Shown in pieces: positions 1,897 through 16,704 of a stretch of 16,704 nucleotides of DNA. Origin of the DNA: a virus. Its lineage: Duplodnaviria > Heunggongvirae > Uroviricota > Caudoviricetes. Position 1 is the first letter of the stretch, and each line of letters opens with the position of its first letter. The DNA is taken from IMG/VR virus record IMGVR_UViG_2541047712_000007, one strand, 5' to 3'. The notes beneath the pieces were generated by a model. That model had not been told where the DNA came from. It saw only the letters and a list, made by a program, of their open reading frames with translations, and searched no databases. The translations under genes and the position numbers were made by a program.

Positions 1897-2350
1897 CCCC
1901 GACCTCCTCAAATTGAGGAGGTCGAAAGTATCAACCAGTTACCGCGCCGACTTCCTCAAATTGAGGTTCCCGAAAATATCAGCGGGTTAACGATCAAACT
2001 GGCGAGTAATTAAACTGCGAAAATTTCGCATGTGAGGGATGTAGTCGGCGCAATTTTGCGCTTTGCTTTAATCTCAGTAAGTTACCGCGCCAACTTCCAC
2101 AGTCTGTGGAAATTGGGAAGAATCAACGGTTTAGGCCTTAATCATCTGCGTAATCATAAGTAATCATAATGTTCATTCAGCCACGCAATTTTGCGTTATC
2201 GGGAATATCAGCAAGTTACCGCGCCGGATTCCGCCAATGGCTGTTTCCGAAAGAATCAACGGGTTAGGCTGGTTTCCCCGATGTTCGCCGCTGGCGAATT
2301 TCGAAAATATCAACCAGTTACCGCCGCAACCGCTCCGGCTTCTTCCAGTG
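1897..2350. repeat. Degenerate direct-repeat array: four units of conserved box, 24-28 bp variable hairpin-prone segment, second conserved box
   Basis: Left boxes aaagtatcaaccagttaccgcgcc (1925-1948), tcagtaagttaccgcgcc (2075-2092), tatcagcaagttaccgcgcc (2206-2225), aaaatatcaaccagttaccgccgc (2303-2326). Right boxes aaaatatcagcgggttaacg (1973-1992), aagaatcaacggtttaggcc (2118-2137), aaagaatcaacgggttaggc (2250-2269). A perfect 9-bp-stem hairpin gacctcctcAAATTgaggaggtc sits at 1901-1923. Spacers carry near-palindromes gcgaaaatttcgc / gcgcaattttgcgc. Confidence 0.65.
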
Positions 2351-2599
2351 GTACGTTATTTTTTCTTTCTCCCGATGCAGTTCAACGCGGCGATTGTAGG
2401 CCAGCATTTCAAGAACGCGGATCCGTATGTTGCGCATATCAACATCATTAAGCTGGATACCATCACGGCACATCACCTCAGCAACAACACGCGCATAATT
2501 TTCGGCTGTCACGCTGTCCGGCTGCGTGGTCTGTTCGTCAGCCTGCTGGCTGATTCCAGATACGCGGCGGATTAATCCCAGTAGTTCGGCTTCTGTCAT
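2318..2599 (-). CDS. Hypothetical protein (93 aa), last gene of the packaging operon
   Basis: ATG at 2599 with a GAGG Shine-Dalgarno about 9 nt upstream, 13 nt after the TerL stop. Helix-rich translation. Its last 13 codons lie inside repeat unit 4. No family recognised. Confidence 0.5.
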   Translation of the reverse strand: MTEAELLGLIRRVSGISQQADEQTTQPDSVTAENYARVVAEVMCRDGIQLNDVDMRNIRIRVLEMLAYNRRVELHREKEKITYHWKKPERLRR

Positions 2600-2612
2600 G
2601 CTGCTGACCTCA

Positions 2613-4274
2613 TTACACCCCGCTGAATTCTTCCAGTTTCTGGCGGTGGCTGTCGCTTATATCAAAAGCAAAATCCTCATGCTCTGCCTGGAATGTACCA
2701 AACGCCATCAGTGCCGCCACGCTCGGGTCTATCTTGTTCGGTGATTTTTTCTTGTTCGGCTTGATATTGGCGTTCGCGTCACTCTGCATCACGACGTTAC
2801 TCATCGACCAGGACAACACCGGATCGCCACGATGCACAATCACCCTGCGGTTAACAAAAACTTCGAACGATTTCGCCGCCGGACTGAATCTGAGGTAGGT
2901 TTGCGGGAACGGCTCCACCTCAAAACCTGCCCCCTGTAATTGCGTTCTGAGATGCGTGGCGTTCCACGTATCAAAGCCCACCAGCCTGATATGAAATTTC
3001 TCCGCGTCCTGCATGATGTCATCTCTGATCCGGTCGTAATCAATGCAGTCGCCAGGCGTTGTGCGTATCCAGCCCGCTTTAGCCCACTGACGATAGACAG
3101 CGCGGTTTTTATTGGCGGGGTTCTGTAGCTGGAACTCCGGCAGATAATGACGGGAAATCAGCATAATGGTTTTACCGACCGGAAAGGCATAGCATACGCT
3201 GGAAATATCGCTGGTTGATGATAAATCCAGCCCCGCGTAACACTCCTGGCCGTGTAAATCTTCCTCCGTGAACGTTCCGGCACACTCAGCCCATGCGCCG
3301 TTACCCATCCACGGGGTAGCCCCCTGGCACCAGATATTAAATCGCTTTGTCATCATCTCCACCCACTGCGACGGTATTCCCCGCGCTTTCTGGATGGTTG
3401 AGGCCAGTTTTTCACGATCGACGGAAACATCGATATTGGGATTCGCCTTTATCCACATCGCCGGATCGTCAACCTCGCTTTCATCATCCAGCTCGTAAAT
3501 CAGCACGAACATGGATTCGTTCACCTCTTCACCATCCAGTATCTGGCAGCAATAGTCGTAGTGTTGTTTACAGGCTGAAACAACGTTGCTCCCCGATGTG
3601 GTGATGGCAAATAACAGCCCCTCCGGACGCGCCCCCATTCCCAGTTCAAGCGCGGAATAAACCCCGTTGTCAGGGTGCAGGTGATATTCATCCACAATGG
3701 CAAGACTCGGGTTTGTACCTTCAATGGTTGCCGCTTTTGCTGCCAGCGGCTTTAACAGGCTGTTGCTTTTCGGGTGTATCACCTTATGCGCCTGAATATT
3801 CACTCTCTTGCGTAACGGTCGGGATAAAAGGCACATCTGACGCGCATCATCAAAAACGATCCGCGCCTGGTCGCGGCTCACCGCTGCGGTGTAAATATCC
3901 TGCTGCCCGTTCTCCATAATCAAAAACCAGTTAGCCAGAATCGCGGCTGTCGTGGATTTCGCATTTTTGCGCGGCACTTCGATAAAGGCGCTCGTGTATT
4001 TGCGCCTTCCGGTGGCCTTAACCTTAAAGCCGAGGATGCACGCAAAGGCAAACTGCTGCCACGGTTCCAGCTCAATGGGTCTTCCACGCATCGGCCCTTT
4101 TACGTGCGGGCACACCCTGGAAAAGGCAATAAACCGCTCAACAACCTCACGATCGAACATGTAAAGGGGGTTTTCAAGGTCCGAAAAGTATCGTTCAACG
4201 GTCTGTTTCAGCCGTTTACAGGCCGGAATCTTGCCCGTTTTTACGTCTTCTGCGTACTTATTCCAGGCGGTCAA
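2613..4274 (-). CDS. terL: Terminase large subunit (553 aa)
   Basis: N-terminus TAWNKYAEDVKTGKIPACKRLKQTVERY is typical of TerL. Size, and position immediately after TerS with a 17-nt overlap, fit. The first codon at 4272-4274 is TTG (GAGGA upstream), so the exact start is uncertain. Confidence 0.92.
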   Translation of the reverse strand: MTAWNKYAEDVKTGKIPACKRLKQTVERYFSDLENPLYMFDREVVERFIAFSRVCPHVKGPMRGRPIELEPWQQFAFACILGFKVKATGRRKYTSAFIEVPRKNAKSTTAAILANWFLIMENGQQDIYTAAVSRDQARIVFDDARQMCLLSRPLRKRVNIQAHKVIHPKSNSLLKPLAAKAATIEGTNPSLAIVDEYHLHPDNGVYSALELGMGARPEGLLFAITTSGSNVVSACKQHYDYCCQILDGEEVNESMFVLIYELDDESEVDDPAMWIKANPNIDVSVDREKLASTIQKARGIPSQWVEMMTKRFNIWCQGATPWMGNGAWAECAGTFTEEDLHGQECYAGLDLSSTSDISSVCYAFPVGKTIMLISRHYLPEFQLQNPANKNRAVYRQWAKAGWIRTTPGDCIDYDRIRDDIMQDAEKFHIRLVGFDTWNATHLRTQLQGAGFEVEPFPQTYLRFSPAAKSFEVFVNRRVIVHRGDPVLSWSMSNVVMQSDANANIKPNKKKSPNKIDPSVAALMAFGTFQAEHEDFAFDISDSHRQKLEEFSGV

Positions 4275-4614
4275 GCTCGTCCTCTTCTTCTGTTTCCGGT
4301 GGATTTTTACGGCGGCTTATCGGGTCAAAACCGAGCAAAGAGGCCATTTTTATCATCACTCTTTCCGCGTCGGATTTCGCGCTTAATGCGGGGTTTCTGC
4401 TCTCTCCGCCCTGACTGTTAACAATGCTGAATCCGCGCGCCGCAAGGTCTGCGACGGCTTTCCGGTATATCGAGTAATTGACGCAATACAGTTCCAGATT
4501 ACTCCAGTCGGCAGGGGTCAGGTCTCCCCGTTCCGCAAGCTGCCGCGATTTTTCCCGCCACTGCTTCACGGCGATATCATCCAGGTAGGCGGGGACTTTC
4601 GGTGGTCTTGCCAT
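4258..4614 (-). CDS. terS: Terminase small subunit, P27-like family (118 aa)
   Basis: N-terminal MARPPKVPAYLD motif, size, acidic C-terminus, and position directly upstream of and overlapping TerL. Confidence 0.85.
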   Translation of the reverse strand: MARPPKVPAYLDDIAVKQWREKSRQLAERGDLTPADWSNLELYCVNYSIYRKAVADLAARGFSIVNSQGGESRNPALSAKSDAERVMIKMASLLGFDPISRRKNPPETEEEDELDRLE

Positions 4615-4903
4615 GCTTATTTTTTCGCCAGATTATTTTTCAAAAAATTACCGTGCATAAAAATTTGGGGAGGCGTTCGGTGCCCGGCGGGGTCGGGTTT
4701 GTCCTGAAAACGCCCCCCACCCCGTCATACAGCCTCATCAGCGATTGCGGAAACATTCCATAACCTCGCAGTCACGGTCGGTTAATCGCTTCGCTGTGAT
4801 GCGTTCTGCGCGTCCTGACGCTTTATCTTTATGCCCTGTTTCTTGTGTCTTCCATGCGTCACGCTGCCTTATAAGTCCACGGATAAGGCGGTTTTGTTCC
4901 CGC
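4615..4903. other. HNH-TerS intergenic region; candidate cos/packaging initiation site
   Basis: A 289-bp non-coding gap between the HNH and TerS genes, the position where HNH-associated cos phages keep cos. It contains an AT-rich tract with tttttcaaaaaa (4621-4660) followed by a GC-rich block ggggaggcgttcggtgcccggcggggtcgggtttgtcctgaaaacgccccccacccc (4667-4724) with an imperfect inverted repeat. Confidence 0.3.
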
Positions 4904-5344
4904 TCATTCATCAGCGTCATACATCCAGTTATTGCGGTTAGCGGCCCGTTCTTCCTCTTCACGAAATCCACCTGCGGCACGCTTGCTTTTTGTTGCCGGA
5001 TCAAGCCATTTCGTTTTCTGGTTATGGCACGCCTGGCACAATGGCTGATGGTTCCATTCGGGCCAGAAGAGAACATCATCACCGCCATTAATCGGGATAA
5101 TGTGATCCACCACCACGGCGGGCGTATATATCCCCTTCTCAAGGCATCGCACGCATAACGGGTTTTTACTCAGATACATGGCGCGGTATTTGTCCCACTG
5201 TCTGGAGTACCCACGCGCGCGGCGGTGTCCTCGTCTGGCATCCTCTGCACGCCATGCCGCCCGCCTGTGCTCCTCACACTTGCCGGACTTCACGCGCCTG
5301 TTACAGCCTGGTTCTGTGCATCGTCTTAATGGTTGCCACGGCAT
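4904..5344 (-). CDS. HNH endonuclease (146 aa)
   Basis: Cys-rich zinc-binding motifs (CTEPGCNRRVKSGKCEEH, CVRC, CQACHNQ) and the HNH core VVDHIIPINGGDD...NHQPLCQACHN. Confidence 0.9.
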   Translation of the reverse strand: MPWQPLRRCTEPGCNRRVKSGKCEEHRRAAWRAEDARRGHRRARGYSRQWDKYRAMYLSKNPLCVRCLEKGIYTPAVVVDHIIPINGGDDVLFWPEWNHQPLCQACHNQKTKWLDPATKSKRAAGGFREEEERAANRNNWMYDADE

Positions 5345-5640
5345 CAGTACACCCCCACATCACGGTAAGCCGTCCAGAGTGCACCAATCGTCATGGGTAC
5401 GCGTGTTTTTGCGTTATCCGCGACAATCTGGCGATTTTCATACAGGTGAGCGATAAACATCATGCAGCCAATCTTTATGGCTGGCGTGAACTCCAGCCCG
5501 TCATCAAAGCGCCTGCCTATGTGTATCTGGCACGCCTCAAGCGATGCGGCGATGTATCCGCTGATTAACTGGTCTTCCTCGTCGCCATCGATGCGGCAAT
5601 GGAGTTTCACTTCTTCCAGGGTGATAAGTTCTTCTGTCAT
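5344..5640 (-). CDS. gp6-like head-tail connector protein (98 aa)
   Basis: MTEELITLEEVKLHCRIDGDEEDQLISGYIAAS matches the N-terminal pattern of phage gp6-type connector proteins. Start overlaps the upstream stop (ATGA). Confidence 0.7.
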   Translation of the reverse strand: MTEELITLEEVKLHCRIDGDEEDQLISGYIAASLEACQIHIGRRFDDGLEFTPAIKIGCMMFIAHLYENRQIVADNAKTRVPMTIGALWTAYRDVGVY

Positions 5641-5975
5641 TTTTCCGCGCCCTCACGACAAAGAATTTCAAGGCGTGTCCTGGCGGCATCCGGCAGCGGC
5701 TGCCCGATGATATTCAGTACACGCCCCGCCAGCGGCCCCGTATTGACCTTTATCCGGCTGGTGGCGTTGATGTCCTTCCTGTAGCGTATCCATATCCTTA
5801 CCGTTCCAGTCGCCAGTTCTGCACCCGATGAAATGGCCTCCTTGCTGCTGATCATGTTCACGCTTGCCCAGAGTGTGTGACCGTCCTCCCACGTTTCGAG
5901 TATTTCGCCGGTTATATCCCTGGTCTGTTTCAGGGTCTGAATCGTTACCCTGTCACGCAGTCGCCCTATGTTCAT
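5637..5975 (-). CDS. Head-tail adaptor / head-closure protein (Phage_H_T_join-like), about 112 aa from the internal ATG
   Basis: RLRDRVTIQ...IRYRKDI...LEILCRE pattern. The ATG at 5975 overlaps the portal stop (ATGA) and has a GAGGGAG upstream. The ORF extends in frame to an ATG at 6017 that has no Shine-Dalgarno. Confidence 0.7.
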   Translation of the reverse strand: MNIGRLRDRVTIQTLKQTRDITGEILETWEDGHTLWASVNMISSKEAISSGAELATGTVRIWIRYRKDINATSRIKVNTGPLAGRVLNIIGQPLPDAARTRLEILCREGAEK

Positions 5976-7183
5976 TCCGGTTTTTCTCCCTCGCTGATTT
6001 TTACTTCCTGTTTCCATGCCTGGCTGAACTCATCACCACCATCACGCGGGGACAGCCCTTCACGTTCGCGGGCTTCGTTCGGGCACATAACGCCGGATTT
6101 GATGCCGCGTTCATAGGTGGCAAAGCGTTCGCCAGGAGTGGCCCGTAACAGGTCCGCGCTGTCAAACTCCACCTGATACCGGATACCAGGTACAGGTGAG
6201 GCCACCAGCAGGGCGTTTTTTATCTGCTGCTCAAAGTTCGCCAGCCACGGGCGCATCGTCATGGTGAGAAATGCGCGGCTTGCCTCGCTGAAATTGCTGT
6301 AGGTGCTGTTGCTGTATTCCTGCAAAAAAATCGGCGAGACGTTGAACATTCGGGCGATGTCTTCAATGGTGAAGCGACGGGAGGCCAGCCATTCAGCATC
6401 CTGATTACTCATGCCCAGCTGCTGATAGCTCATACCCCCTTCAAGGATGGGCGTTTTTCCGGCGTTTCTGGCCCCTTTGTAGCGTTCCAGTGCGGCTAAT
6501 GCCTGTTTGCCCTTCACGCCGTCCAGCCATTCGCCTGACGTGATAACCCCTGCCGCCATCATGCCATCACGCATCACGCTCGCGCCGTGGCGTTGTTGGG
6601 CCAGCCCAAGCCCCAGCGATTCGCGGCAGATGGTTACAGGTGAGCGCCCCATAAAACCGTCATCCGTGGAGTAACGAAGGTGGAGAACCTCCCACGGTAA
6701 ATAGTTGCGGGTGTTTCCGGTGTAGGCGTCAGTGATGCAGTAGCGCCAGTTATGCTCACCTGTCTGCTCAACGTTCACCGACTGCGGCGGGTAAGGATGC
6801 AAAGCGACTGGAAAACCATCACGCCCCCACTGAATCACCGCATAAGCATTACCGTTTAACAGGCAGTGGCGGATCATCATTCGCTTAAACTGGTAGGGGG
6901 TTTGCCATGCGTTCGGGCGCTCGTTGAGGATGTGATCGACCGGATGAGAATCAAGCCACTCTCGGGCCTCCTTCCCCTTCTCATTGCGTACCAGGTACAG
7001 GTAACACGGCATGGTAGCCACCGCCTCAGAGATGACCGTGACGGCGTTCATGACGGCGGGCAGTGATTCCGCTGTCCCCGATGATACGTACTCACCCGCC
7101 CCCGTGTTCGATGTGCCAGCCAGCGCCATAAACTCATCAAGCGTCATGCTGCGCTGCTCTTTTTTTCTTCTGAAAGGCCACAT
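5972..7183 (-). CDS. Portal protein, HK97 family (403 aa)
   Basis: Size and the motif RRFTIEDIARMFNVSPIFL characteristic of HK97-type portals. ATG at 7183 with a G-rich Shine-Dalgarno. Confidence 0.93.
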   Translation of the reverse strand: MWPFRRKKEQRSMTLDEFMALAGTSNTGAGEYVSSGTAESLPAVMNAVTVISEAVATMPCYLYLVRNEKGKEAREWLDSHPVDHILNERPNAWQTPYQFKRMMIRHCLLNGNAYAVIQWGRDGFPVALHPYPPQSVNVEQTGEHNWRYCITDAYTGNTRNYLPWEVLHLRYSTDDGFMGRSPVTICRESLGLGLAQQRHGASVMRDGMMAAGVITSGEWLDGVKGKQALAALERYKGARNAGKTPILEGGMSYQQLGMSNQDAEWLASRRFTIEDIARMFNVSPIFLQEYSNSTYSNFSEASRAFLTMTMRPWLANFEQQIKNALLVASPVPGIRYQVEFDSADLLRATPGERFATYERGIKSGVMCPNEAREREGLSPRDGGDEFSQAWKQEVKISEGEKPE

Positions 7184-7184
7184 A

Positions 7185-7757
7185 TCACACCCCCGCTAAA
7201 TCCGCCCACCAGCGGCGATTATCCGCACGCGGCATTTTTTCGGGGTGCTGCTCGTACAGGGAGCGGCGGGCCAGCTCCACGCCGGAATCAGGGTAAGCCG
7301 GTACGGATGTAACGGTAATTTCGTATAGTTCCGCCACCAGCACGGTGCGCACGCATGGATCTGTTGTGGTATCCCATACATCCTTACGGGAACGAAAGCC
7401 AAAGCTCATGCCGGATATATCACCTCGTTTAACCAGTTCGATAACGTCGCGCCCTGTACTGGTATCCGGTGGGGTCAGTTCAAAGCGTAACCCTGTTTCG
7501 TCCTCTTCCAGTTTCAGCGTGCCGGAACGGGTGCGCCCCAGTAACATGCTGTGGTCATGCTCATACAGGCCGCGAACGTCATTACCCGCCGCAAGCCACT
7601 CAGTAAACGCCCCCCGCTGGAATTTTTCGTAAAACTCCCCCCATAGCAGTTCTGAAAGCTTATCCCAGCGAACAACGTAGCCCGTCAGCGTACCGGCTCC
7701 GCTGGTAGTGATTTCCGATGACCGGATTTCCATACTCTTCATAATTTTTTCACCCAT
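7185..7757 (-). CDS. Prohead maturation protease, HK97 family (about 180-190 aa)
   Basis: GYVVRWDK...LYEHD...LGRTRSGTLKLEEDETGL matches the HK97 prohead protease family. The start could be the ATG at 7757, 7742 or 7733. Confidence 0.88.
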   Translation of the reverse strand: MGEKIMKSMEIRSSEITTSGAGTLTGYVVRWDKLSELLWGEFYEKFQRGAFTEWLAAGNDVRGLYEHDHSMLLGRTRSGTLKLEEDETGLRFELTPPDTSTGRDVIELVKRGDISGMSFGFRSRKDVWDTTTDPCVRTVLVAELYEITVTSVPAYPDSGVELARRSLYEQHPEKMPRADNRRWWADLAGV

Positions 7758-7786
7758 AAAACACTAAAGGGGCTTTTAAGCCCCTT
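7757..7786 (-). terminator. Intrinsic terminator or attenuator between the capsid and protease genes
   Basis: Minus-strand hairpin aaggggcttaaaagcccctt (8-bp stem, 7767-7774 pairing with 7779-7786) followed by a U-rich run (uaguguuuua). Confidence 0.5.
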
Positions 7787-7796
7787 CTGTATGCTG

Positions 7797-8954
7797 TTAA
7801 TCGTCGTCCTGTGGCAGTTCCAGAATCTTGATCGCGTTCGAATCCACCACGCCACCGCCTAAATATTTCTGCGTGAAAATTTTGATGAAGCCCGGCTCTG
7901 TGAGGTTGTCCGGTCTGGTGCGAACACCTGTTTCGTGATCAACAATGTAGTAACCGCGTTTGAAGTCACCCAGGGCAATAACGTTATCAGGCATAAACTC
8001 CAGATATTCGACCGGAAGGCCCAGCAACGTATCAGGATCACCCGCCTGTAAACGGTCGCGCCAGATGTAATCACCGTTCGCGTTCTTCACCTTCTGAAGT
8101 TTTGCCGCCGTCGTGGAGTTAACCACCCAGACCGCGTTTTTGCGGTATTTTTTACGTAATGCAAATTTCAGGTCGATCAGCGGGTCCGCAGATGTCCACG
8201 CCAGAGATTCGGAAGGTTTAATTACCTGCAACGTACCAAAATCACGCTCTTTGTCGTTCTTCTCTGCACGGGGTACGGATAAAAAACCTTTTGCTTTTTT
8301 GTCACCGTCGCCCACAACCAGATCGCTTTCTTCGGTTTCCGTGAAGGTGTCGCCAATCTCACCCGTCAGCCATGAAAGGATGTCCACATCGGAAAAATCC
8401 ACGATTTCCTGTGTGGTGCGCGGGTACGCATAGACCGGATACAGCTTAATGCTCACCTCGTTAATCTGCGGGGTGCTGGTCTGTTCGCGTGTCTTACCCT
8501 CTTCACCGTGGTTAACGGTCGCACCGCCAGCGGAAACAAGCTGCTTAAACTCGTTGCTGCTGATTTTCTTCACGGTACAGATGCGGCGCATGGTGGATTC
8601 ATCCGTCAGCATTCGCATGATTTCGGTGTTCAGTTCGGGGATAACGGTATAACCACCATCAGCGGGAACGCCTGTACTTAATGCGCGGGTTTCACCTGTC
8701 AGAATGTAGTTGCGTAGTTCTGCGGGGTCAGTGGTCTGGCTGCTTTTACCTGGCTTGCTGCGCTCTTCGTCTGCAATGGCTTCAAGGCGGGAAATGTCTT
8801 TATCGAGGGATTCAGCTTTAGCGCGTAATTCGTCAAATTTTGCGCCCTCAGCATCGTTAAGACTGCGGTTTTCTTTTTCCGCGTTCTCCAGCATGTCGCG
8901 CATCTGATTTTTAATGGCGGTTTTCTGCTGGCGTAATTCGATTATTCTCGGCAT
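7797..8954 (-). CDS. Major capsid protein, HK97 fold, with N-terminal coiled-coil delta/scaffold-like domain (385 aa from the ATG at 8954)
   Basis: HK97-family capsid-like C-terminal two thirds. The N-terminal roughly 90 aa are charged and heptad-like, and no separate scaffold gene exists. ATG at 8954 with AGGA upstream; the ORF track extends to a GTG at 9002. Confidence 0.92.
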   Translation of the reverse strand: MPRIIELRQQKTAIKNQMRDMLENAEKENRSLNDAEGAKFDELRAKAESLDKDISRLEAIADEERSKPGKSSQTTDPAELRNYILTGETRALSTGVPADGGYTVIPELNTEIMRMLTDESTMRRICTVKKISSNEFKQLVSAGGATVNHGEEGKTREQTSTPQINEVSIKLYPVYAYPRTTQEIVDFSDVDILSWLTGEIGDTFTETEESDLVVGDGDKKAKGFLSVPRAEKNDKERDFGTLQVIKPSESLAWTSADPLIDLKFALRKKYRKNAVWVVNSTTAAKLQKVKNANGDYIWRDRLQAGDPDTLLGLPVEYLEFMPDNVIALGDFKRGYYIVDHETGVRTRPDNLTEPGFIKIFTQKYLGGGVVDSNAIKILELPQDDD

Positions 8955-9210
8955 AAAAAAAGTCCTGGGGTTAAGTAAGGAACTCCAGGACGCGGCAAAC
9001 ACTCAACCGTTTTTCATAAGGAAATCAGTAATCGCACCGATCGTTTTCCCGCCTGGTAATGAATATTGGCGAGCACATTAACAGGCGGGAAAATGGCCCC
9101 AGCGTCCTGGCACCACGGGCGAGAATAATCATGATTCAGGTCGGGTAAAATATGCCGTTCCGGTCAGCGAGCAACGTGGAACAACCACGAACAAATAATT
9201 TACAAAACAT

Positions 9211-9234
9211 GACAAAAAGCCGGATTGCTCCGGC
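9211..9234 (-). terminator. Rho-independent terminator ending the early/replication operon
   Basis: Minus-strand hairpin gccgga-GCAA-tccggc (GNRA loop; 9219-9234) followed by uuuuugucauguuuug, immediately after the stop at 9242. Confidence 0.7.
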
Positions 9235-9241
9235 TGTGTGA

Positions 9242-9514
9242 TTATCTGTCCTGGTAATTTCGCCATATTTCATCGCTTACACCATCTATACCCATTTCAG
9301 CATAAGTGCGATCTACTGCCTTTCTCAGGTCTCCGAAGTTATCCGGCGGCTCCGGTGGCTTCTGTGCCTTCCTGGAACATTCCAGCCGTCGCATCGTAAC
9401 CTGATGCCGTTCCTTGTCTGTCTCCACCAGCAGCATGACTTCACCCCATCGCGCCGACGCCCTCCGGTAAAAGCCTTTCGCCTCGAGTTCTTCCGCTATG
9501 CGGTCATGTACCAT
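9242..9514 (-). CDS. Hypothetical protein (about 91 aa)
   Basis: ORF downstream of ssb. The ATG at 9514 has a GAGGGG Shine-Dalgarno 6 nt upstream; the track ORF extends to 9634 but would overlap ssb. No family recognised. Confidence 0.5.
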   Translation of the reverse strand: MVHDRIAEELEAKGFYRRASARWGEVMLLVETDKERHQVTMRRLECSRKAQKPPEPPDNFGDLRKAVDRTYAEMGIDGVSDEIWRNYQDR

Positions 9515-9524
9515 CGCCACCCCC

Positions 9525-9935
9525 TCAGAACGGAATACCGTCACCGTAAGGGTCATCGCCTCCCGCTGGTGGCTGATTACCCTGTGTGCCTGTGGTTTTG
9601 CGTCTGTTCCCGCCAGGACGTGCCGCACGGGCACTGATTACGCTGTCTGCAATAACCTGATAACCCTGCCGCGTTTCCCCGTTCTGTCCCGTCCACTGGC
9701 TGACCTGCATCGTGCCGGATACGCTGGCAACGTCGCCTTTTTGATGTTTAGCCAGGAAGTCGGCCTGCTTACCAAATGCGATGACCGATAGCCATAACGT
9801 CGCCTGCCCATCCTGCGCCTGACTACATGGCAACGATACCGCCATACGCGCCAGCGTCATCGGTGTGCCCTTACTGGTCTGTTTTACCTGCGGGTCGTCC
9901 ACCAGCCGCCCGTAAGCCGCTATCTGTGCTGTCAT
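9525..9935 (-). CDS. ssb: Single-stranded DNA-binding protein (136 aa)
   Basis: OB-fold-like N-terminal region (AAYGRLVDDPQV...LWLSVIAFGKQADFL), Gly/Gln/Pro-rich linker, and the C-terminal acidic tail ...DDPYGDGIPF resembling the SSB DDDIPF tip. ATG overlaps the upstream stop; GGAGAGGTGG Shine-Dalgarno. Confidence 0.85.
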   Translation of the reverse strand: MTAQIAAYGRLVDDPQVKQTSKGTPMTLARMAVSLPCSQAQDGQATLWLSVIAFGKQADFLAKHQKGDVASVSGTMQVSQWTGQNGETRQGYQVIADSVISARAARPGGNRRKTTGTQGNQPPAGGDDPYGDGIPF

Positions 9936-10210
9936 GATTCCACCTCTCCGGTTTTAACGTTGATGGTTGTTACCTGTTCCGCTTCGGCAATCTCCCGTTC
10001 TGTCAGCGTGGCAAAGTTTGCCGCCGCCGTGGTCATGAATGCGCTTATCAGTTCGGGATGTGCTTTCGCGTATCCTTCCCCCGCGTGGCGGTCTATCGTT
10101 CTGATTGCCACCTTTAAAGCGTGCTCTGTCATGTCTAACGCGCGATATTTCGGTTCTGTTCTGTCTCTGCGTTTTTTGAGTGATTTATTAAATTTCCCTG
10201 AAGTGTGCAT
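9932..10210 (-). CDS. Hypothetical protein (92 aa), first gene after the origin
   Basis: ATG at 10210 with a GAGGGGG upstream; translationally coupled to ssb. No family recognised. Confidence 0.5.
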   Translation of the reverse strand: MHTSGKFNKSLKKRRDRTEPKYRALDMTEHALKVAIRTIDRHAGEGYAKAHPELISAFMTTAAANFATLTEREIAEAEQVTTINVKTGEVES

Positions 10211-10254
10211 ATTTATTTTTACCCCCTCGTTTAAAAAGTTTTGAGTTGTGCCTC

Positions 10255-10490
10255 CCCTTGTCTACCTTATCTACCTTACTGGCTCTCATGCCAGTAATGG
10301 CGCGGCTTTCAGCGGGGTAGAGTGCTTTTATCCACTATCTACCCCGTGTCTACCTCCCTGTCTGATTCAGGTAAAATCAGGTAGAGAGGGTAGATAGTGG
10401 GTAGACAGTAAAAAAAGGCTATCTACCTAACTTAATGCACTGAATTAAATGTATTTTTCTTTACTCAGGTAGACAGGGTAGACAGCAATT
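10255..10490. repeat. Iteron-type replication origin
   Basis: At least 11 copies of the 7-mer GGTAGA(C/G/T) in both orientations (for example tgtctaccttatctacc 10259-10275, ggtagagagggtagatagtgggtagacag 10380-10408, caggtagacagggtagacag 10466-10485), interspersed with A/T tracts, directly 3' of the primase gene. Confidence 0.75.
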
Positions 10491-10498
10491 ACAAAAAA

Positions 10499-12253
10499 TT
10501 ATAAAAACGCGTCGCACTCGTCTGTTGTTATTGCGTTAGTCTGCGTTACTCCCTTAACTTTCCGCGTAATATATTCATGTCCGTAAACTTTCGCGGCTGG
10601 CTTCATAGCCTTGCCAAAGTCATTTACGTTTAGCGGTTTGCTCCTGCCTGCGTACGCCATAAACGCCAGATAGACGCGGTAAAGACTGTTTCTGGTCGTG
10701 TACTTCACTGAATCGCCACCGCCGCCCATCATCAGGCCGCGTGCTTCCTCCAGAAAATTCAGGAACTGGCAAAACTCAATAACCGGATCCGTCTGTTGCT
10801 TTATTGCCAGAGCTTCATCACCGTCACGCTGTTCCAGTAGTAAAGCCCTCGCCTTCTCAGGGTCGGTAAAGTTCGCCAGCAATCGGCGGATAATGACAGG
10901 GATTTCAGCCGCGATCTTTTCCGGTAGCTCCCTGTCTTTTTCGGCCTCACTGACGATATTGTCGAAACGGAAAATCACGCGACGACGTGCCACACCTCCG
11001 GCCCGTTCGGTGAATATCATCGGGTTATTGTTGGTCGCCAGCACCACCGCCCTGATTACAGCCGTGAAACGCTTTTCGTATTTCGGGTTAATTTCCACGG
11101 GGTCACCGCCCGTGATTTTCTTGATGCCCGTTCCTTCGCCTGTATATTTCGGCTGGTCAGCCAGGACGATAAGACGACTCCCGACAACCTGCGCACGTCC
11201 ACCAGCATCATCAAGCGATGTCATTTCAGCGCTTACCGTGTTCTGTTTCCCTGCCAGAAGGCTGGCTATGTGTGTGAATGTACTTTTACCGCTCCCGCCG
11301 TCTCCGGTGGCCTCAATAAACATCTGCCAGTCGTACCGGTTCGCCATAATCATGTACAGCGCGGCACATATACGCATCATCTTGCGCGGGTCTTTTCCGG
11401 CTGCGTGCTCAAGCCATTTATGAAAGTTTGGCGCGTTATCGCGGATGTTCTCCCCTGGTGCTGGTGGCGTGTACTCAATGCCGTTGTGCGTGGTGATCCA
11501 GTTCTCCGGCGTGTGCGGGGAAAATTCCCCCGTTTTCAGGTCAAGCGCACCATTGGCGAACGGCAGCAAATCGCCGGACGGCTCGCCCATTGGTTCGGCA
11601 ATAACTTTTAACGCTTCCACGGCGTTATTGATTACGCGCTTGCTGAAAGTGGCCCTGTGCTCTGAATAGATCGCCACCATTTCGCGGCTAAGTTCCATTG
11701 TGCTGACCGGACACCATACCCCGCCGCGCCATACGTGAACGATTTCACTTTCAGGATGTACGCAAACGCCATCAAAGCGATCGGCAAGCAGCTGCGCGCG
11801 CTCACTGTCCGCCATCTGCGAAAGTTGCGCCTTTTGCTTTACCGGAAGCTCAATGACCAGACCATCAGAAAGATTCTGGCGCTCACGGGCCAGATATTCG
11901 CGCCAGTTCTCCACCTTCTGACCGTGCATACCCTCAGGATAAAAATTTGCATCCTGTACGCCTGCCGCCGCCAGCTTCTGGCCAATCGCCTTTATCATTA
12001 CTGGCGCAAGATATCCGGCCCTGAATATGCGCACGGATTTTCTGCCTTCCGGCACAATTTGCAGCTTATCCAGTTCTGATAACTGCTGCTCCCCAAGCCA
12101 CACAGGAGGCTCATTATCTCCGGCCATACGCGCATCATGTTCCTGCCATTGTTTCGCGTGTGCCCAGGCATCACTACCCGCAAAAATAATGACTTCTGTT
12201 CCTTTGTGTTTTATGCCGCGTGACTGCTGTTTTACGTTCGGTGCCAGTTTCAT
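10499..12253 (-). CDS. P4-family primase / SF3-type helicase replication protein (584 aa)
   Basis: Walker A motif TGDGGSGKSTF in the C-terminal half, size, and the position upstream of the iteron origin. ATG overlaps the upstream stop (ATGA). Confidence 0.9.
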   Translation of the reverse strand: MKLAPNVKQQSRGIKHKGTEVIIFAGSDAWAHAKQWQEHDARMAGDNEPPVWLGEQQLSELDKLQIVPEGRKSVRIFRAGYLAPVMIKAIGQKLAAAGVQDANFYPEGMHGQKVENWREYLARERQNLSDGLVIELPVKQKAQLSQMADSERAQLLADRFDGVCVHPESEIVHVWRGGVWCPVSTMELSREMVAIYSEHRATFSKRVINNAVEALKVIAEPMGEPSGDLLPFANGALDLKTGEFSPHTPENWITTHNGIEYTPPAPGENIRDNAPNFHKWLEHAAGKDPRKMMRICAALYMIMANRYDWQMFIEATGDGGSGKSTFTHIASLLAGKQNTVSAEMTSLDDAGGRAQVVGSRLIVLADQPKYTGEGTGIKKITGGDPVEINPKYEKRFTAVIRAVVLATNNNPMIFTERAGGVARRRVIFRFDNIVSEAEKDRELPEKIAAEIPVIIRRLLANFTDPEKARALLLEQRDGDEALAIKQQTDPVIEFCQFLNFLEEARGLMMGGGGDSVKYTTRNSLYRVYLAFMAYAGRSKPLNVNDFGKAMKPAAKVYGHEYITRKVKGVTQTNAITTDECDAFL

Positions 12254-12549
12254 TTTTTACCCCTGAATCCTTTAATCATGGTTTTCATCTTCTGAATATT
12301 GGCGCGTGCTTTCTCCCTGCTGGTGGGCACGTTACGCGGTACGGCCTGCACAAGAGAAAAATCACGGTCGAACTGATAAACAGGCATCACGCAATCATAT
12401 TCGTAGCCTTCACGACGGTAGGTTACGCGCCGTTCCTCCACGCCCTTAATCATTACCGTGCCGCCGTACTTATCGCGGTAAATATCACCGCGCATGAATT
12501 TAGTGCGAGTTTTGCCACTGGCAGTTAAGCCAGAATATTTAAGTTTCAT
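12250..12549 (-). CDS. Hypothetical protein (99 aa), basic
   Basis: ATG at 12549 with GGAGAA upstream; translationally coupled to the primase. No family recognised. Confidence 0.6.
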   Translation of the reverse strand: MKLKYSGLTASGKTRTKFMRGDIYRDKYGGTVMIKGVEERRVTYRREGYEYDCVMPVYQFDRDFSLVQAVPRNVPTSREKARANIQKMKTMIKGFRGKK

Positions 12550-12554
12550 TATTT

Positions 12555-12788
12555 TTATTCTCCGGTGTGGGGCGCTTTATACTGGTCGTGTAATGTCTCT
12601 ATTTCCTGCAACTCATTTATTACAGGCTCAAGAAGCGTTATTAATGCCGTGACAATCCTTGATTTCTGTTTATCACGTTCATTATCTCCAAGCGTTTCAA
12701 GACATATGCGCAATATTTCCAACATATTTTCACTGTGAGAAAGTGCAAGAAATGCGCGGTCTATTGTTTCGTGGTAAATATCACGCAT
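12555..12788 (-). CDS. Hypothetical protein (77 aa)
   Basis: ATG at 12788 with GGGGA Shine-Dalgarno; tightly packed in the operon. Confidence 0.55.
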   Translation of the reverse strand: MRDIYHETIDRAFLALSHSENMLEILRICLETLGDNERDKQKSRIVTALITLLEPVINELQEIETLHDQYKAPHTGE

Positions 12789-12789
12789 A

Positions 12790-13011
12790 TTAATCCCCGT
12801 CCGTCGTTTTTCTTAAAATAACCTCTGTCACGAAATCAGCATAATCGGCGGCGATATTCAGTACATCAAGCCCCGTTGATTTATATTCTCTCGTGGAAAG
12901 TAAGAAAAAAGCCGCTCTAATAAGCTCTGGCATTGACGAAAGCGCATCAGCCGCATCATCAGGAACGCCGGAAAATTCCTGTTTCAGGGAATTAAAACGA
13001 TCATCACGCAT
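12790..13011 (-). CDS. Hypothetical protein (73 aa), acidic
   Basis: ATG at 13011 with AGGGGGG Shine-Dalgarno; overlaps the upstream stop. Confidence 0.55.
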   Translation of the reverse strand: MRDDRFNSLKQEFSGVPDDAADALSSMPELIRAAFFLLSTREYKSTGLDVLNIAADYADFVTEVILRKTTDGD

Positions 13012-13369
13012 GTTTACCCCCCTGAATGACCTGATAACCGCAACTGGTCAGCAACTCGATAAATTCCGGCAGTGTGCCGAAACAGCAATCATCACGCAGC
13101 CGTTCGCAGGATACCTCGACGCCGTTTTCGTAGTGACTCACCATACATCCGGTAAAATGCAGATCATCATCGTGATGGCTCGTTGACGGCTTAATCAGTC
13201 GCGCACGTTCCGCCAGTTCCAGCAATGCTTCAACGCTTCCGGCAATTGCACCATCCGGCAGGTGATAATTACGCACTATGCGCCCGTTCTCCACATTGAC
13301 CAGCAACTGCCCGGTAAATTTCTCGTCAAACTGAATGCTGTTAAGGTCAGAAATTGACAGGTTATGCAT
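13004..13369 (-). CDS. Hypothetical protein (about 121 aa)
   Basis: ATG at 13369 (MHNLSISD...) with GGAGG upstream, overlapping the upstream stop; the track ORF extends to 13387. Confidence 0.55.
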   Translation of the reverse strand: MHNLSISDLNSIQFDEKFTGQLLVNVENGRIVRNYHLPDGAIAGSVEALLELAERARLIKPSTSHHDDDLHFTGCMVSHYENGVEVSCERLRDDCCFGTLPEFIELLTSCGYQVIQGGKHA

Positions 13370-13586
13370 GGTGCACCTCCTGCACATCAGCCATGATAAT
13401 TTTTCCGGCCTTATCCAGTGCCTGATCGGCTTTTAGCTGCACAAATGCTAAATAATGGAAGATGCATTCTGATTCTCTGGCTGCGTGTTTATGCGCCCTG
13501 TCAGCAATAACAGAAATATCAATAAGCGCGTGCATCAGCGTAGTGAGCGCGGCGGCTGCTGCGTCCGGTGTGGTTTTATTGCACAT
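13362..13586 (-). CDS. Hypothetical protein (74 aa)
   Basis: ATG at 13586 with AGGGGGT Shine-Dalgarno. Confidence 0.5.
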   Translation of the reverse strand: MCNKTTPDAAAAALTTLMHALIDISVIADRAHKHAARESECIFHYLAFVQLKADQALDKAGKIIMADVQEVHHA

Positions 13587-13782
13587 GGCCTACCCCCTGG
13601 CGAATACGGGCAGCGAATACCATCACGCAGCCATCAGGAGATTGCTGACGCGCTTCCTGTTCGCTGGTGGCCTCGATGGTAATCACGCGCGGTTGTGCCG
13701 TGCTCAGGGCGATAAAACGCCAGATGTATTTATTCAGGTCGTGCGAATCCCGCCCTTGCGGGTGTGTGGTATGATTTCTCAT
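13576..13782 (-). CDS. Hypothetical protein (68 aa), first gene of the leftward operon
   Basis: ATG at 13782 with GAGG 5 nt upstream. It is the C-terminal, plausible part of a 430-aa track ORF whose remainder is antisense to plus-strand genes and the operator region. Confidence 0.45.
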   Translation of the reverse strand: MRNHTTHPQGRDSHDLNKYIWRFIALSTAQPRVITIEATSEQEARQQSPDGCVMVFAARIRQGVGHVQ

Positions 13783-13878
13783 AGCTACCTCGATACTTTC
13801 GCTATCGTTGGTGGTTAGAAGCCCGGTTAGTGTTAGCGCACTGCCGGGTTTCGTCGTTTCTGCACCTTGCGCCAACAA

Positions 13879-13931
13879 GGTGTTGAACACCAATTTAAAC
13901 CCAGGTGTTAAACACGTCAAGTGTTGAACAC
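13879..13931. promoter_or_regulatory. Triple palindromic operator in a divergent promoter region
   Basis: Three copies of the palindrome GTGTT-N-AACAC: gtgttgaacac (13880-13890), gtgttaaacac (13905-13915), gtgttgaacac (13921-13931), lying between the leftward operon start (13782) and the plus-strand RHH gene (13982). Confidence 0.7.
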
Positions 13932-13981
13932 TTATTTTTTTTCCTGCATACTGCATTTGTTTTTTATGAGGGGTACACCAC

Positions 13982-14161
13982 ATGGCGACAAAAGCAGTAA
14001 ACGCAAAATCACAAACCGTTGCGGCAAGGGTTCCGCATGAAGTTATGAACAATGTTGAGGCGGTAAAAATGCCTGGCGAAAGTACGGGGCAATTTGTTAC
14101 TGCGGCATTAAAACGAGAAGTTGAATATCGCCAGCGGCGCAAGGCCAAAGAACCAGAGTAA
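13982..14161 (+). CDS. Ribbon-helix-helix (Arc/CopG-like) DNA-binding protein, 59 aa; candidate island repressor
   Basis: ATG at 13982 with GAGGGG Shine-Dalgarno. The translation has an RHH-like beta-strand (QTVAARVPHEV) followed by two helices. Below the ORF-track length cutoff; I translated it directly. Confidence 0.6.
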   Translation: MATKAVNAKSQTVAARVPHEVMNNVEAVKMPGESTGQFVTAALKREVEYRQRRKAKEPE

Positions 14162-14218
14162 TCACCATCAGCGCCGTGGTGTGAGGAACTACGGCGCATT
14201 GCTATGCAGGACAACACA

Positions 14219-14392
14219 ATGACCGATAAAGAATTGACCAAAACATTATCACCGGCACGGAAAAGACGGCGCAGAAAGATAGAGCATGAATCAGAAAGAT
14301 TCGCGCCATGTGCTTTTGCCCTTGAGCAATTCCTTAAAGAGTACAGGGAAAAGCGCTCATTGCAGGTATGGCAACGAACTGAACCAGACTGA
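14219..14392 (+). CDS. Hypothetical small basic protein (about 57 aa)
   Basis: ATG at 14219 with AGGA 7 nt upstream (track ORF starts at 14204). Arg-rich (RKRRRRK); followed by a plus-strand terminator. Confidence 0.3.
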   Translation: MTDKELTKTLSPARKRRRRKIEHESERFAPCAFALEQFLKEYREKRSLQVWQRTEPD

Positions 14393-14470
14393 TTGCATTG
14401 CCCACCAGCCGCAAATGTGGCATTGTTGGCAATGCTCATGCGTTGGGGATAACGTGTAGCTTGTGTCGAG

Positions 14471-14500
14471 GGGCCACCGTAGCGGGTGGCCTTTGTTTTG
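14471..14500 (+). terminator. Rho-independent terminator (plus strand)
   Basis: Hairpin ggccacc-gtagcg-ggtggcc followed by tttgttttg. Confidence 0.6.
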
Positions 14501-14594
14501 CCCGTTATTCGGCAATTGTGGCGCTTCTCCACATGGTTGATATAATCCCACTGCTCAGATTCATTTTTTGCGCAGTAGGTTAATTGTTCACAAA

Positions 14595-14626
14595 GGCGCT
14601 CCGGCAACGGGGCGCTTTTTGTTTTT
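14595..14626 (+). terminator. Rho-independent terminator (plus strand), GNRA loop
   Basis: Hairpin gcgctccg-GCAA-cggggcgc (8 bp including one G-U) followed by tttttgttttt. Confidence 0.6.
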
Positions 14627-14920
14627 ATTAGTTTGTAGAAACCTGACTCAGAGATAATGCTCATATTCTGATTGCCGTCAGGGGTGTAAGTTAAATTTAC
14701 TCCCTTTTTATCATCAAACATCTGCAACGCTCTGGCGTTAGCAATATTGGTTTCACTCCCGCCAGTAAGGCCGGAAATAACCGGAATAATTTCGGCAAAA
14801 TTTTGCAGATTCTGTTTTTCAGGACGAACGAAGCCCCGCCCTTGTTCGGGAGAATATCCAGTATTCATGGTTAGATCTCTGTATTAGTGGATGGGTGGCG
14901 GCTGTGTGCCGCCAGCCTGA

Positions 14921-15109
14921 TTAGTGAACTGCCTCGCAGCTGTCCTTCCATGCCAGAACTTCGGATAAAGACCAGCCAACGGAACGACCGCCCAGCTTAC
15001 GCCGTGATGGGAATTGTCCGGCTTTTTCCAGGCGGTACCGACATGAGCGGCTCAGGCCTGTAAGTTGCTGACATTCTTTTTCACGTATAAAGCGATCTGT
15101 GCTTAACAC
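14921..15109 (-). CDS. alpA: AlpA-family transcriptional regulator / excisionase-like protein (62 aa)
   Basis: QQLTGLSRSCRYRLEKAGQFP...KLGGRSVGWSLSEVLAW matches the AlpA winged-helix signature. GTG start at 15109 with AGGGGGAA upstream. Confidence 0.8.
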   Translation of the reverse strand: MLSTDRFIREKECQQLTGLSRSCRYRLEKAGQFPSRRKLGGRSVGWSLSEVLAWKDSCEAVH

Positions 15110-15113
15110 AATT

Positions 15114-15195
15114 CCCCCTTTGTTGTTTCTTAAAGAGTCATTGGGTGGATTATTGGGTTGGGTTGTGTCGGATTGTGTCAGGGTGTTTGTGGAAT
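15114..15195. promoter_or_regulatory. TTGT-rich phased direct repeats immediately upstream of alpA
   Basis: 10-bp register: ttgggtggat / tattgggttg / ggttgtgtcg / gattgtgtca / gggtgtttgt (15141-15190), preceded by tttgttgtttc (15117-15127). Confidence 0.45.
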
Positions 15196-15390
15196 GGCAA
15201 ACACTGGCGGCGGTCGTTTTACAGAAGCAGGGGGAATGAGAATAAAAACTCTTTTAATTCATTATGATGCAAAGGCATAAAATTTTACTTTTACGCCTTT
15301 TTTACATATTTTTAAGAGTGATTCGCCAGTGTATAAAAAAACAGTACACCTATAAAAATCAAATGGTTATTACGATGGCTGATTTTTAAC

Positions 15391-15450
15391 CCGTTGTTCC
15401 ATTTTGTTCCTTGTTGTTCGTCGTTGTGTCTCGTTGTTTCACGTTGTCCG
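15391..15450. repeat. Six tandem 10-bp repeats (NCGTTGTNYC) 3' of int
   Basis: ccgttgttcc / attttgttcc / ttgttgttcg / tcgttgtgtc / tcgttgtttc / acgttgtccg in an exact 10-bp register. Confidence 0.6.
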
Positions 15451-15474
15451 CGTCCTGAAAAATCGCAAAAAAAA

Positions 15475-16704
15475 TTATATTTCTCTGGCTATTGGCAATG
15501 TGGTTACGTTTTCATGTGTTCCCGCCAGTATCCCTAACCGCTCCGTCCACATATCCAGCGCGTCACGTTTCGCATCCAGATAACGGGAATGGTTATAGAC
15601 TCGTTGCATCCCTGGCATCTGATGACCTGTAAGCTGCTCCACGACGTGAGGATCCACGCCTAAATCGTTCAGCATCGTTGTAAAGGTGCGCCGGATGTCA
15701 TGCAGTGACCAGTGAGGGTGTTTTAGCCTCCTGTGCGCTAATCTGCCGTACTGCGACACGCTTGTTTCCTGTTTCACTTCCCCCAGCAATAAGCCCGTGT
15801 GCCTGTTCTGCTCCACCAGCTGCGTGACGAACGGCAGTATTGCTTCCGGTATGGGCCGGAATATTGCCACCTTCGTTTTGCTGTGTTCTTTCGGCACGGT
15901 CCAGAGCATTTCGGTAAAATCCCACTCGCTGATCTCCGATAACCTCAGTTCTACCGTCCGGCATCCGAAAACAATCAGGAGGCGGATTAGTGCGACGTAG
16001 TAAGGGGAAAATATTTTTTTGTCCAGTGCCTGCAATAATTCGCCAAGTTCTTTGGTGCTTAAGACGCGCTCGCTTATATCCGGTTTTTTCCCAACGTCCG
16101 CCACACTCATATCATCAAGAACGTTGCTGATTGCATAGCGCCGCCTCCGGCAGAACTTAAGCGCCTGTTTGCACGTCTGTAGCAAGAATCCGGCAGTAAC
16201 AGGCGTTCGCTTTGCCACCTGGTCAAAACAGGCCAGCCAGTGCCGTAGCTCGCATTTATCCAGCGGCATAGCACCAATGTGCTGTATTACGTGATTATTA
16301 AGGCGCTTTTTCAGGGCGGCATAATCCACGCGGTTTTCCTTTGCGTACGACTCAAGCCAGTAGGTGAGCGCATCGCCAACCGTTACCGGCTTTAACGCTT
16401 CCTGTACGGTGTAATTCATTTCATGACGTGGATTTTTCCCCTCTGCCAGCCATGCGCGACACTGGGCGGCTTTTTCCCTGGCTGATTTCAGGCTCAGATC
16501 AGGATAATTTCCCAGCTTAATGCGTTCCGGTGGTGCCCCCCTTCCCGTTCCGGCCCTGTAAGTGAAATACCAGGTTAAAAGGCCACTGGTTGAATGCCTG
16601 ACGCTCAGGTTTCCACCGTCATTAAGAAAGGCTGTTTTTTGGGCGGGTGTGCCGTTGATTTTCCTCAGCTGTGTATCGCTCAGTTTGTTAAGTGCTCTGC
16701 TCAT
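15475..16704 (-). CDS. int: Tyrosine integrase, P4-like family (409 aa)
   Basis: C-terminal catalytic signature LHDIRRTF...GHQMPGMQRVYNHSRY (His-x-x-Arg box plus terminal Tyr) and a long N-terminal arm/core-binding region. Start codon is the last three bases of the window. Confidence 0.93.
   Translation of the reverse strand: MSRALNKLSDTQLRKINGTPAQKTAFLNDGGNLSVRHSTSGLLTWYFTYRAGTGRGAPPERIKLGNYPDLSLKSAREKAAQCRAWLAEGKNPRHEMNYTVQEALKPVTVGDALTYWLESYAKENRVDYAALKKRLNNHVIQHIGAMPLDKCELRHWLACFDQVAKRTPVTAGFLLQTCKQALKFCRRRRYAISNVLDDMSVADVGKKPDISERVLSTKELGELLQALDKKIFSPYYVALIRLLIVFGCRTVELRLSEISEWDFTEMLWTVPKEHSKTKVAIFRPIPEAILPFVTQLVEQNRHTGLLLGEVKQETSVSQYGRLAHRRLKHPHWSLHDIRRTFTTMLNDLGVDPHVVEQLTGHQMPGMQRVYNHSRYLDAKRDALDMWTERLGILAGTHENVTTLPIAREI

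Follow-up and report, generated by a model that had tools for sequence, protein, structure and literature searches.

A probable EcCIEDL933-type capsid-forming PICI at the known phoQ-roxA attachment site of Escherichia coli

In this study, we provide evidence that a window of 16,704 nt (the whole stretch of DNA that was analysed, IMG/VR virus record IMGVR_UViG_2541047712_000007) very probably consists of phoQ and a 15.4-kb capsid-forming PICI (cf-PICI) of the EcCIEDL933 type, integrated by an EcCICFT073-type integrase at the known phoQ-roxA PICI site. While an earlier note on this DNA had regarded the boundaries of the island as unresolved, both were placed by aligning the flanking sequence and island-free references and by reading the 10-bp repeat between them, and on this alignment they are resolved to the base, with attL at 1460-1469 and attR at window-equivalent 16876-16885 (Table 1). 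The island itself is an ordinary, already known member of a well-studied E. coli phage satellite family, and its phoQ-roxA site is likewise already known and published. It is established that satellites of the PICI family interfere with helper phages and spread across species.

The window opens on the ATG of phoQ and closes on the ATG of the minus-strand int ORF. Since int abuts the right edge, as the earlier note had observed, the att site on its 5' side cannot be inside the window, and the right flank was read in genomes that differ from the window at 2 SNPs instead of in the window's own record. When the whole window was searched by megablast against 5,426 complete E. coli genomes, several full-length matches were listed at 100.0% identity, and the best match, THO-008 (locus L001), differed by 2 SNPs over 16,704 nt (99.99% identical). 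On the right side of this genome int is followed by 248 bp, roxA (also named ycfD), pepT and potABCD, and on the left side of phoQ lie phoP, purB, hflD, mnmA, nudJ, rluE and icd. In MG1655 (K-12), phoQ and roxA are neighbours with a spacer of 75 bp. The K-12 gene order given in the earlier note was therefore accurate, the island does lie between the two genes in the near-identical genomes, and the attR core was found in THO-008 beyond position 16704, where the att site next to the 5' end of int had been expected. The insertion left the phoQ ORF and its stop codon undamaged, and roxA retains 67 bp of native DNA upstream.

Table 1. Features of the window and of the adjoining right flank (window coordinates unless the THO-008 locus, L001, is named)
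Feature	Position	Strand	Remarks
phoQ	1-1461	+	left chromosomal flank; ORF, RefSeq phoQ WP_000735412.1 and alignment to K-12
attL identity block AAATATGTCC	1460-1469		left repeat copy; its first 2 nt close the phoQ stop codon TAA
Island portion within the window	1470-16704	-	island as a whole: 1470 to window-equivalent 16885
Int-distal attP arm (P')	1470-1640	+	begins TTTTATC, inverted partner of GATAAAA
Arm doublet ACTACACC-N4-ACTACACC	1548-1567		~93 bp from core centre, far side; putative arm-type site
Five-unit palindrome array	about 1880-2320		inside the island, ~400 bp from the junction
Capsid/packaging module	2318-9002	-	Pfam and RefSeq names
PerC-family regulator, SSB, small ORF, replication protein	9242-12253	-	Pfam and RefSeq
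D5_N / P4-family primase replication protein	10499-12253	-	TIGR01613, 109.1 bits vs cutoff 108.7
AlpA-family regulator	14921-15109	-	PICI hallmark gene near int; PF05930, 3e-18
int, tyrosine integrase, EcCICFT073 type	15475-16704	-	409 aa, complete; ATG on last window base
Second ACTACACC doublet	L001 24731-24750		~140 bp from core, int side; co-oriented with the first
attR core	L001 24876-24885 = window-equivalent 16876-16885		172-181 nt to the right of the window; 67 bp upstream of the roxA start codon (ATG)

Alignment of K-12 attB, the attL of the window and the attR of THO-008 revealed that the island is bounded by an exact direct repeat of 10 bp, AAATATGTCC. The attB reads ...GATGAATAAATATG(C/T)CC ATACTTCACGC..., attL reads ...GATGAATAAATATGTCC TTTTATCACCACAGC... 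and attR reads ...CACTAATTGATAAAATATGTCC ATACTTCACGC.... In island-free genomes the match to a left-junction query ends at window position 1469 (query position 90), and the match to a right-junction query starts at the first base of the core (query position 237). On this comparison recombination is shown to have occurred inside the 10-bp block, which begins in the phoQ stop codon, and the crossover must fall within the attL copy of that block. Counting one copy of the core, the whole island is 15,416 bp.

The earlier note had proposed that the left junction lies in repeat-rich DNA within 1462-2317. The interval was correct, with the junction at its extreme left, but the repeat-rich DNA was not, since chromosomal homology ends at 1469. 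The repeats within this interval are two distinct things, namely the region of the ACTACACC arm doublet and the palindrome array, which sits downstream of the last ORF (2318-2599, minus strand). Each array unit is a palindrome of varying sequence followed by a constant box, GAAARWATCARC, and in most units GTTACCGCGCC precedes the next palindrome; the folding of the array is more stable than that of shuffles (z = -4.1). Five units are also present in the O157 cf-PICI, and a single one in a cf-PICI integrated at tqsA and in a classical PICI at phoQ. An Rfam scan of the window gave nothing at gathering score, and the left-end repeat region had no match in the phage database. A left junction within the array was ruled out by the end of empty-site homology upstream of it, and is also contradicted by other PICIs at the phoQ site, which share window 1-1865 at 99%.

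The attachment site has been catalogued before. Table S1 of Fillol-Salom et al. 2018 (ISME J, PMC6092414) gives the core GGACATATTT and the att gene 'ycfD-phoQ' for two islands, EcCICFT073 (CFT073, 11.4 kb) and EcCIRM12579 (O55:H7, NC_017656.1 1438155-1449376). The published core is the reverse complement of the island repeat, and the core projected from the genome match begins exactly at 1438155, the left end published for EcCIRM12579. The window island thus has the core of the ycfD(roxA)-phoQ site duplicated at both ends, together with an integrase of the EcCICFT073 clade. Eight PICI att sites were counted in E. coli in the same work, and the E. coli att loci of its Table S1 bear the names of protein-coding genes, of an IS110 transposase gene or of intergenic regions, not of tRNAs, thus a non-tRNA target is normal for PICIs rather than an unusual specificity.

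Besides the Arm-DNA-bind_3 (PF13356) and Phage_integrase (PF00589) domains found with Pfam, the integrase has a weak Phage_int_M match (22.3 bits, under the 27-bit cutoff), and the catalytic motifs CRTVELR, HDIRR and RVYNH are present in its translation; RefSeq annotates a complete tyrosine recombinase at identical coordinates. It is identical to the CFT073 integrase at 405 of 409 aa, with identical attR sequences, to that of the cf-PICI of O157:H7 RM8376 at 402 of 409 and to the tqsA-type integrase at 369 of 409. Synonymous changes exceed non-synonymous ones in comparison with relatives (15 to 4, 21 to 7 and 32 to 9).

On the minus strand the gene order begins with int, alpA, an Icd-like region with several small ORFs, primase, SSB and perC, and continues with major capsid, prohead protease, portal, head closure, connector, HNH, terS (Terminase_4), terL and a small ORF. 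Read in window coordinates, the capsid/packaging module runs from a hypothetical protein through terL, terS, a small ORF, HNH, head-tail connector, head closure, portal and HK97 prohead protease to the major capsid. Capsid, portal, HNH, Terminase_4 and TerL were recognised by Pfam, and the protease, head closure and head-tail connector by RefSeq; the integration and replication genes are int (PF00589/PF13356), alpA (PF05930) and a D5_N/TIGR01613 replication gene. No tail or lysis genes were found among the 23 annotated island genes, in which every large ORF is accounted for, and cf-PICIs characteristically lack both lysis genes and a tail module. The distance between the att cores, 15,416 bp, falls within the cf-PICI range of about 10-18 kb. 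With int, alpA and primase, a capsid/packaging set, and neither tail nor lysis genes, the island therefore qualifies as a capsid-forming PICI as defined by Alqurainy et al. (bioRxiv 10.1101/2022.09.08.507074; see also the criteria of 10.1101/2025.02.11.637232). Small capsids, induction by helper phages and the use of helper tails have been experimentally shown for EcCIEDL933 only (bioRxiv 10.1101/2022.09.08.507074). A long ORF at 13576-14868 looks degenerate.

The island was compared with the closest known systems. EcCICFT073, the prototype Gram-negative PICI, has the same ycfD/roxA-phoQ site and the same 10-bp core, alpA adjoins int and perC is also carried; however, it is an 11.4-kb classical PICI relying on capsid and terminase proteins of the helper phage, whereas the 15.4-kb window island carries its own HK97-type capsid, protease, portal, connectors, HNH, terS and terL. 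EcCIEDL933, the prototype cf-PICI of O157:H7, is 15.4 kb, combines int, alpA and rep like those of EcCICFT073 with a complete capsid/packaging set, and is mobilised by helper phages (Alqurainy et al., bioRxiv 10.1101/2022.09.08.507074), and the island of EDL933 and Sakai is entered as 15.5 kb, 'HNH; terL' in the 2018 supplement (PMC6092414); gene content and size (15.4-15.5 kb) are the family likeness to the window island. A 15.5-kb island at the same phoQ-roxA site of O157:H7 RM8376, which stands in here for the EDL933 record, shares window 1-9237, that is attL, the hairpin array and the entire capsid/packaging module, at 98.4% nucleotide identity. The two differ in the replication protein (D5_N / P4-family primase in the window island, DUF927 in RM8376) and in several small genes between primase and alpA, with no nucleotide match at ~10187-11831 and 12565-14163. 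The likeness to P4 and P4-like islands extends to the P4-type integrase architecture, the AlpA-family regulator, the P4-family primase domain and an Icd-like annotation, but unlike P4 the island encodes capsid and terminase proteins of its own and has a non-tRNA target. None of sid, psu and delta, the genes for capsid size and regulation by which a P4-like satellite is recognised, is annotated on the island (RefSeq annotation and Pfam), and NCBIfam PRK09692 scored far under its cutoff (45.6 vs 434 bits).

The cf-PICIs integrated at tqsA have cargo that is 97.7% identical over window 2306-13587. Their attP arms are nearly identical as well, the doubled ACTACACC motif included, whereas a block of ~30 bp at the attP core is replaced and differs throughout, the first 200 nt of int are only 73-80% identical, and 21 of the 40 amino acid differences between the integrases fall in residues 1-84. 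The tqsA type inserts inside tqsA and disrupts the gene. The direct repeat there (locus L002) is TGCTGTTAT, the reverse complement of the core ATAACAGCA published for EcCI042 at tqsA (PMC6092414, Table S1). The phoQ and tqsA types thus represent modular exchange of an int/att cassette between otherwise identical satellites, which fits the published catalogue and is not new.

The phoQ-roxA site is in frequent use. The reconstructed empty site was contiguous in 4,823 of the 5,426 complete E. coli genomes and often matched at 100% identity, and the attL junction was found in 600 and the attR junction in 600, so that empty and occupied sites together account for 5,423 genomes and the site is filled in 11%. 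Chance would not produce junctions in such numbers. The 5' part of int with the int-proximal attP arm was found at ≥95% nucleotide identity in 599 records of the same genomes, so that, against 600 occupied sites, integrase type and site pair essentially one to one. A left end of the cf-PICI type is joined to phoQ in about 137 genomes, and the remaining occupied sites probably carry other PICIs, such as an 11-kb classical PICI in O157:H7 TR01; PICIs were present in all four occupied sites inspected. No integrase more than 50% identical was found in the phage collection, where the best phage-borne one reached 49.8%. According to Fillol-Salom et al. 2018 (PMC6092414), PICI att sites are not used by prophages.

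Rebuilt from the int-side end and the far end of the island, attP reads ...CACTAATT GATAAAA TATGTCC TTTTATC ACCACAG..., with a perfect 7-bp inverted repeat flanking a 7-bp spacer at its core (GATAAAA-TATGTCC-TTTTATC). By analogy with other tyrosine integrases, we infer that GATAAAA and TTTTATC would be the core-type Int sites and TATGTCC (1463-1469) the 7-bp overlap region. This overlap is favoured by symmetry. Identity with the K-12 attB allele, AAATATGCCC, is restricted to AAATATG and CC, and a hybrid attR with the K-12 C allele, which would narrow down the crossover, occurred in none of the 600 occupied sites. The octamer ACTACACC is present in 4 copies in 32.7 kb, against 0.47 expected and at most 2 in each of 100 shuffles, and these copies form two co-oriented doublets with 12-bp spacing, at the two ends of the island only; ~75 nt around the doublet of the window (1543-1617) constitute the arm homology common to the other island end. 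In a related clade of PICI integrases, Tommasini et al. 2023 (PMC10111431) described a co-oriented doubled motif 81 and 132 bp from the attP centre and proposed that it is bound by the arm domain. By comparison with that work, the ACTACACC doublets are putatively arm-type sites for the N-terminal Arm-DNA-binding domain of Int.

On these grounds, the satellite was very probably inserted by its own EcCICFT073-type integrase into the 75-bp spacer between phoQ and roxA (ycfD), and recombination in the AAATATGTCC block left the duplicated core as attL and attR. Excision would need Int, and a part for the adjacent AlpA is suggested by the proposal of Fillol-Salom et al. 2018 that in E. coli PICIs it is a DNA-binding regulator which may control int (PMC6092414). 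Induction by a helper phage would set off excision and packaging, which has been demonstrated in the relative EcCIEDL933; the attP junction of the excised circle would then read ...TTGATAAAATATGTCCTTTTATCACC... / ...CACTAATTGATAAAATATGTCCTTTTATCACCACAGC..., and the restored empty site ...GATGAATAAATATGTCCATACTTCACGC.... The junction of the excised or packaged form, TTGATAAAATATGTCCTTTTATCACCACAG, had 0 matches in IMG/VR and JGI metagenome contigs, a result that is uninformative rather than negative, thus the case for mobility of the window's copy is drawn from its relatives. Fillol-Salom et al. 2018 (PMC6092414) showed spontaneous excision, circularisation and int-attP integration for the Gram-negative PICIs that they examined. 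Together with these published experiments, the intact int with more synonymous than non-synonymous changes and the intact att cores and arms suggest that the copy in the window is probably active.

Other readings of the target have next to no probability. The P4-type architecture of the integrase, Arm-DNA-bind_3 with a catalytic domain, would suit a P4-like island inserted in a tRNA gene just right of the window, and many integrases of this architecture do target tRNA genes (PMC10111431). However, ARAGORN detected neither a tRNA nor a tmRNA in the window and the 8 kb flanking it on each side (L001), the int-proximal junction included, the right flank is roxA and the empty site is the 75-bp phoQ-roxA spacer, so that a tRNA target is refuted by the right flank, the attB alignment and ARAGORN alike. 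The conditional statement in the earlier note that the target may not be a tRNA is thereby borne out, but the unusual integration specificity that it derived from this is not, since the site and the core GGACATATTT were already in Table S1 of PMC6092414 and the site is so widely occupied. That the integrase recently switched to an undescribed non-tRNA target is about as improbable as a tRNA target: the intergenic, non-tRNA position is compatible with it, as is the use of tqsA by a 90%-identical integrase with a swapped ~30-bp attP core, yet the 2018 E. coli PICI catalogue (PMC6092414), whose Table S1 refutes this idea, already contains the two sites with their cores, and 600 of 5,426 genomes are occupied at phoQ-roxA.

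It is also very unlikely, if less so, that the island is a decayed, immobile prophage remnant in the manner of earlier annotations (e.g. O-island 51), its end repeat being a relic. The degenerate look of the ORF at 13576-14868, the want of tail and lysis genes and the lack of a circular junction in virome or metagenome data would be in keeping with decay. On the other hand, int has its full length and catalytic motifs and shows an excess of synonymous over non-synonymous changes, neither the two att cores nor the two arm doublets are damaged, and the site holds differing cargos, cf-PICIs in ~137 genomes and probably other PICIs in the rest of the 600. Missing tails and lysis genes are a defining trait of cf-PICIs, and EcCIEDL933, which has this trait, is mobilised by helpers (bioRxiv 10.1101/2022.09.08.507074). 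The occurrence of 97.7%-identical cargo at tqsA with a different int/att module moreover shows recent mobility.

For annotation, the island is best labelled a cf-PICI at ycfD/roxA-phoQ with ends at 1470 and window-equivalent 16885, a label preferable to 'cryptic prophage' or to an island whose specificity is unknown. The phoQ-roxA and tqsA int/attP pairs, with near-identical arms and a swapped core of ~30 bp, offer a tidy substrate for mapping integrase specificity. The attB itself is polymorphic, reading TATGTCC in most E. coli and TATGCCC in K-12 and a minority of others. The C allele was found at attR in 0 of 600 occupied genomes, against roughly 10-20% of empty sites, in counts made without control for phylogeny, and its absence could reflect a SNP inside the 7-bp overlap or simply phylogeny. 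It is conceivable, but unlikely, that this single-base polymorphism is a natural barrier to satellites of the EcCICFT073 and EcCIEDL933 types, and an int-attP plasmid has been reported to integrate in DH5alpha, a K-12 strain (PMC6092414), which is in tension with such a barrier. Among the genes carried by PICIs are PerC-family regulators, and some of these control the LEE pathogenicity island (PMC6092414). If the barrier were real, a host SNP 7 nt past the phoQ stop codon would shape which lineages are able to carry LEE-regulating satellites.

The attB site of the phoQ-roxA island exists as two alleles, TATGTCC in most E. coli and TATGCCC in K-12 and a minority of other strains. Among 600 occupied genomes, that is, phoQ-roxA sites with island junctions in 5,426 complete E. 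coli genomes, none carried the C allele at attR. The polymorphism may fall inside the inferred 7-bp strand-exchange overlap and hinder integration there, while the absence of the C allele from occupied sites may, on the other hand, reflect nothing but phylogeny. Alignment of the attP sites of the phoQ-roxA and tqsA types showed nearly identical arms, with the swap limited to a core block of ~30 bp. The integrases of the two types share 90% identity, and their differences cluster in the arm-binding domain, the first ~84 aa. At the nucleotide level, identity over the first 200 nt of the two genes is 73-80%.

Coordinates of the features discussed (L001, near-identical genome THO-008; L002, tqsA-integrated cf-PICI; L003, K-12; L004, classical PICI at phoQ; L005, O157 cf-PICI)
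Feature	Position	Strand	Remark
attB polymorphism positions	window 1463-1469; L001 24879-24885; L003 empty site
Integrase, phoQ-roxA type	window 15475-16704	minus
Integrase, tqsA type	L002 18802-20031
Native DNA upstream of roxA	L001 24886-24952		67 bp
Prophage tail-fibre genes	L001 29814-32704		past potB, outside the window
Palindrome array	window 1880-2320; L005 2240-2619		five units
Single array unit	L002 5598; L004 18513
430-aa ORF	window 13576-14868	minus	translation implausible, looks low-complexity
AT-rich gap	window 10211-10498		GC about 0.45

Insertion leaves roxA with only a short stretch of native upstream DNA, in which there is a TATAAT as well as a hairpin, TTAAGCATCC...GGATGCTTAA, extending over the start codon of roxA. 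Beyond this stretch the upstream sequence belongs entirely to the island, whose int gene is divergent from roxA, and the insertion may affect expression of roxA or of the 3' end of phoQ. On the far side of potB, prophage tail-fibre genes follow immediately in THO-008 and therefore belong to a separate prophage or remnant in the potB-potC region, only a few kb away from the satellite. The window differs from THO-008 at two positions, 2636 (G in the window, A in THO-008) and 4595 (A and G, respectively), and the remaining top matches to the window have the same bit score as THO-008.

Within the island, each unit of the palindrome array consists of a palindrome of variable sequence followed by the constant box GAAARWATCARC, and in most units GTTACCGCGCC precedes the next palindrome. 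The constant box has 10 matches across the window, where 0.72 would be expected. Stem sequences vary from unit to unit but keep their self-complementarity, and the minus-strand RNA fold of the array gave z = -4.1. No match to the array was found in Rfam or in phage sequences. The O157 cf-PICI also has five units as in the window, whereas both the tqsA cf-PICI and the classical PICI have only one.

The 430-aa ORF is probably not one real gene. RefSeq annotates only 13576-14508 within it, as 'Icd-like', GC skew turns positive over window 13501-14500, and in relatives the matching DNA is divided among several genes: small ones, a YlcI/YnfO gene on the plus strand, and a pseudogene. Directly downstream of the primase gene lies the AT-rich gap; in the published PICI layout the replication gene is followed immediately on its 3' side by the origin, and by analogy with this layout the gap is the likely origin of replication.
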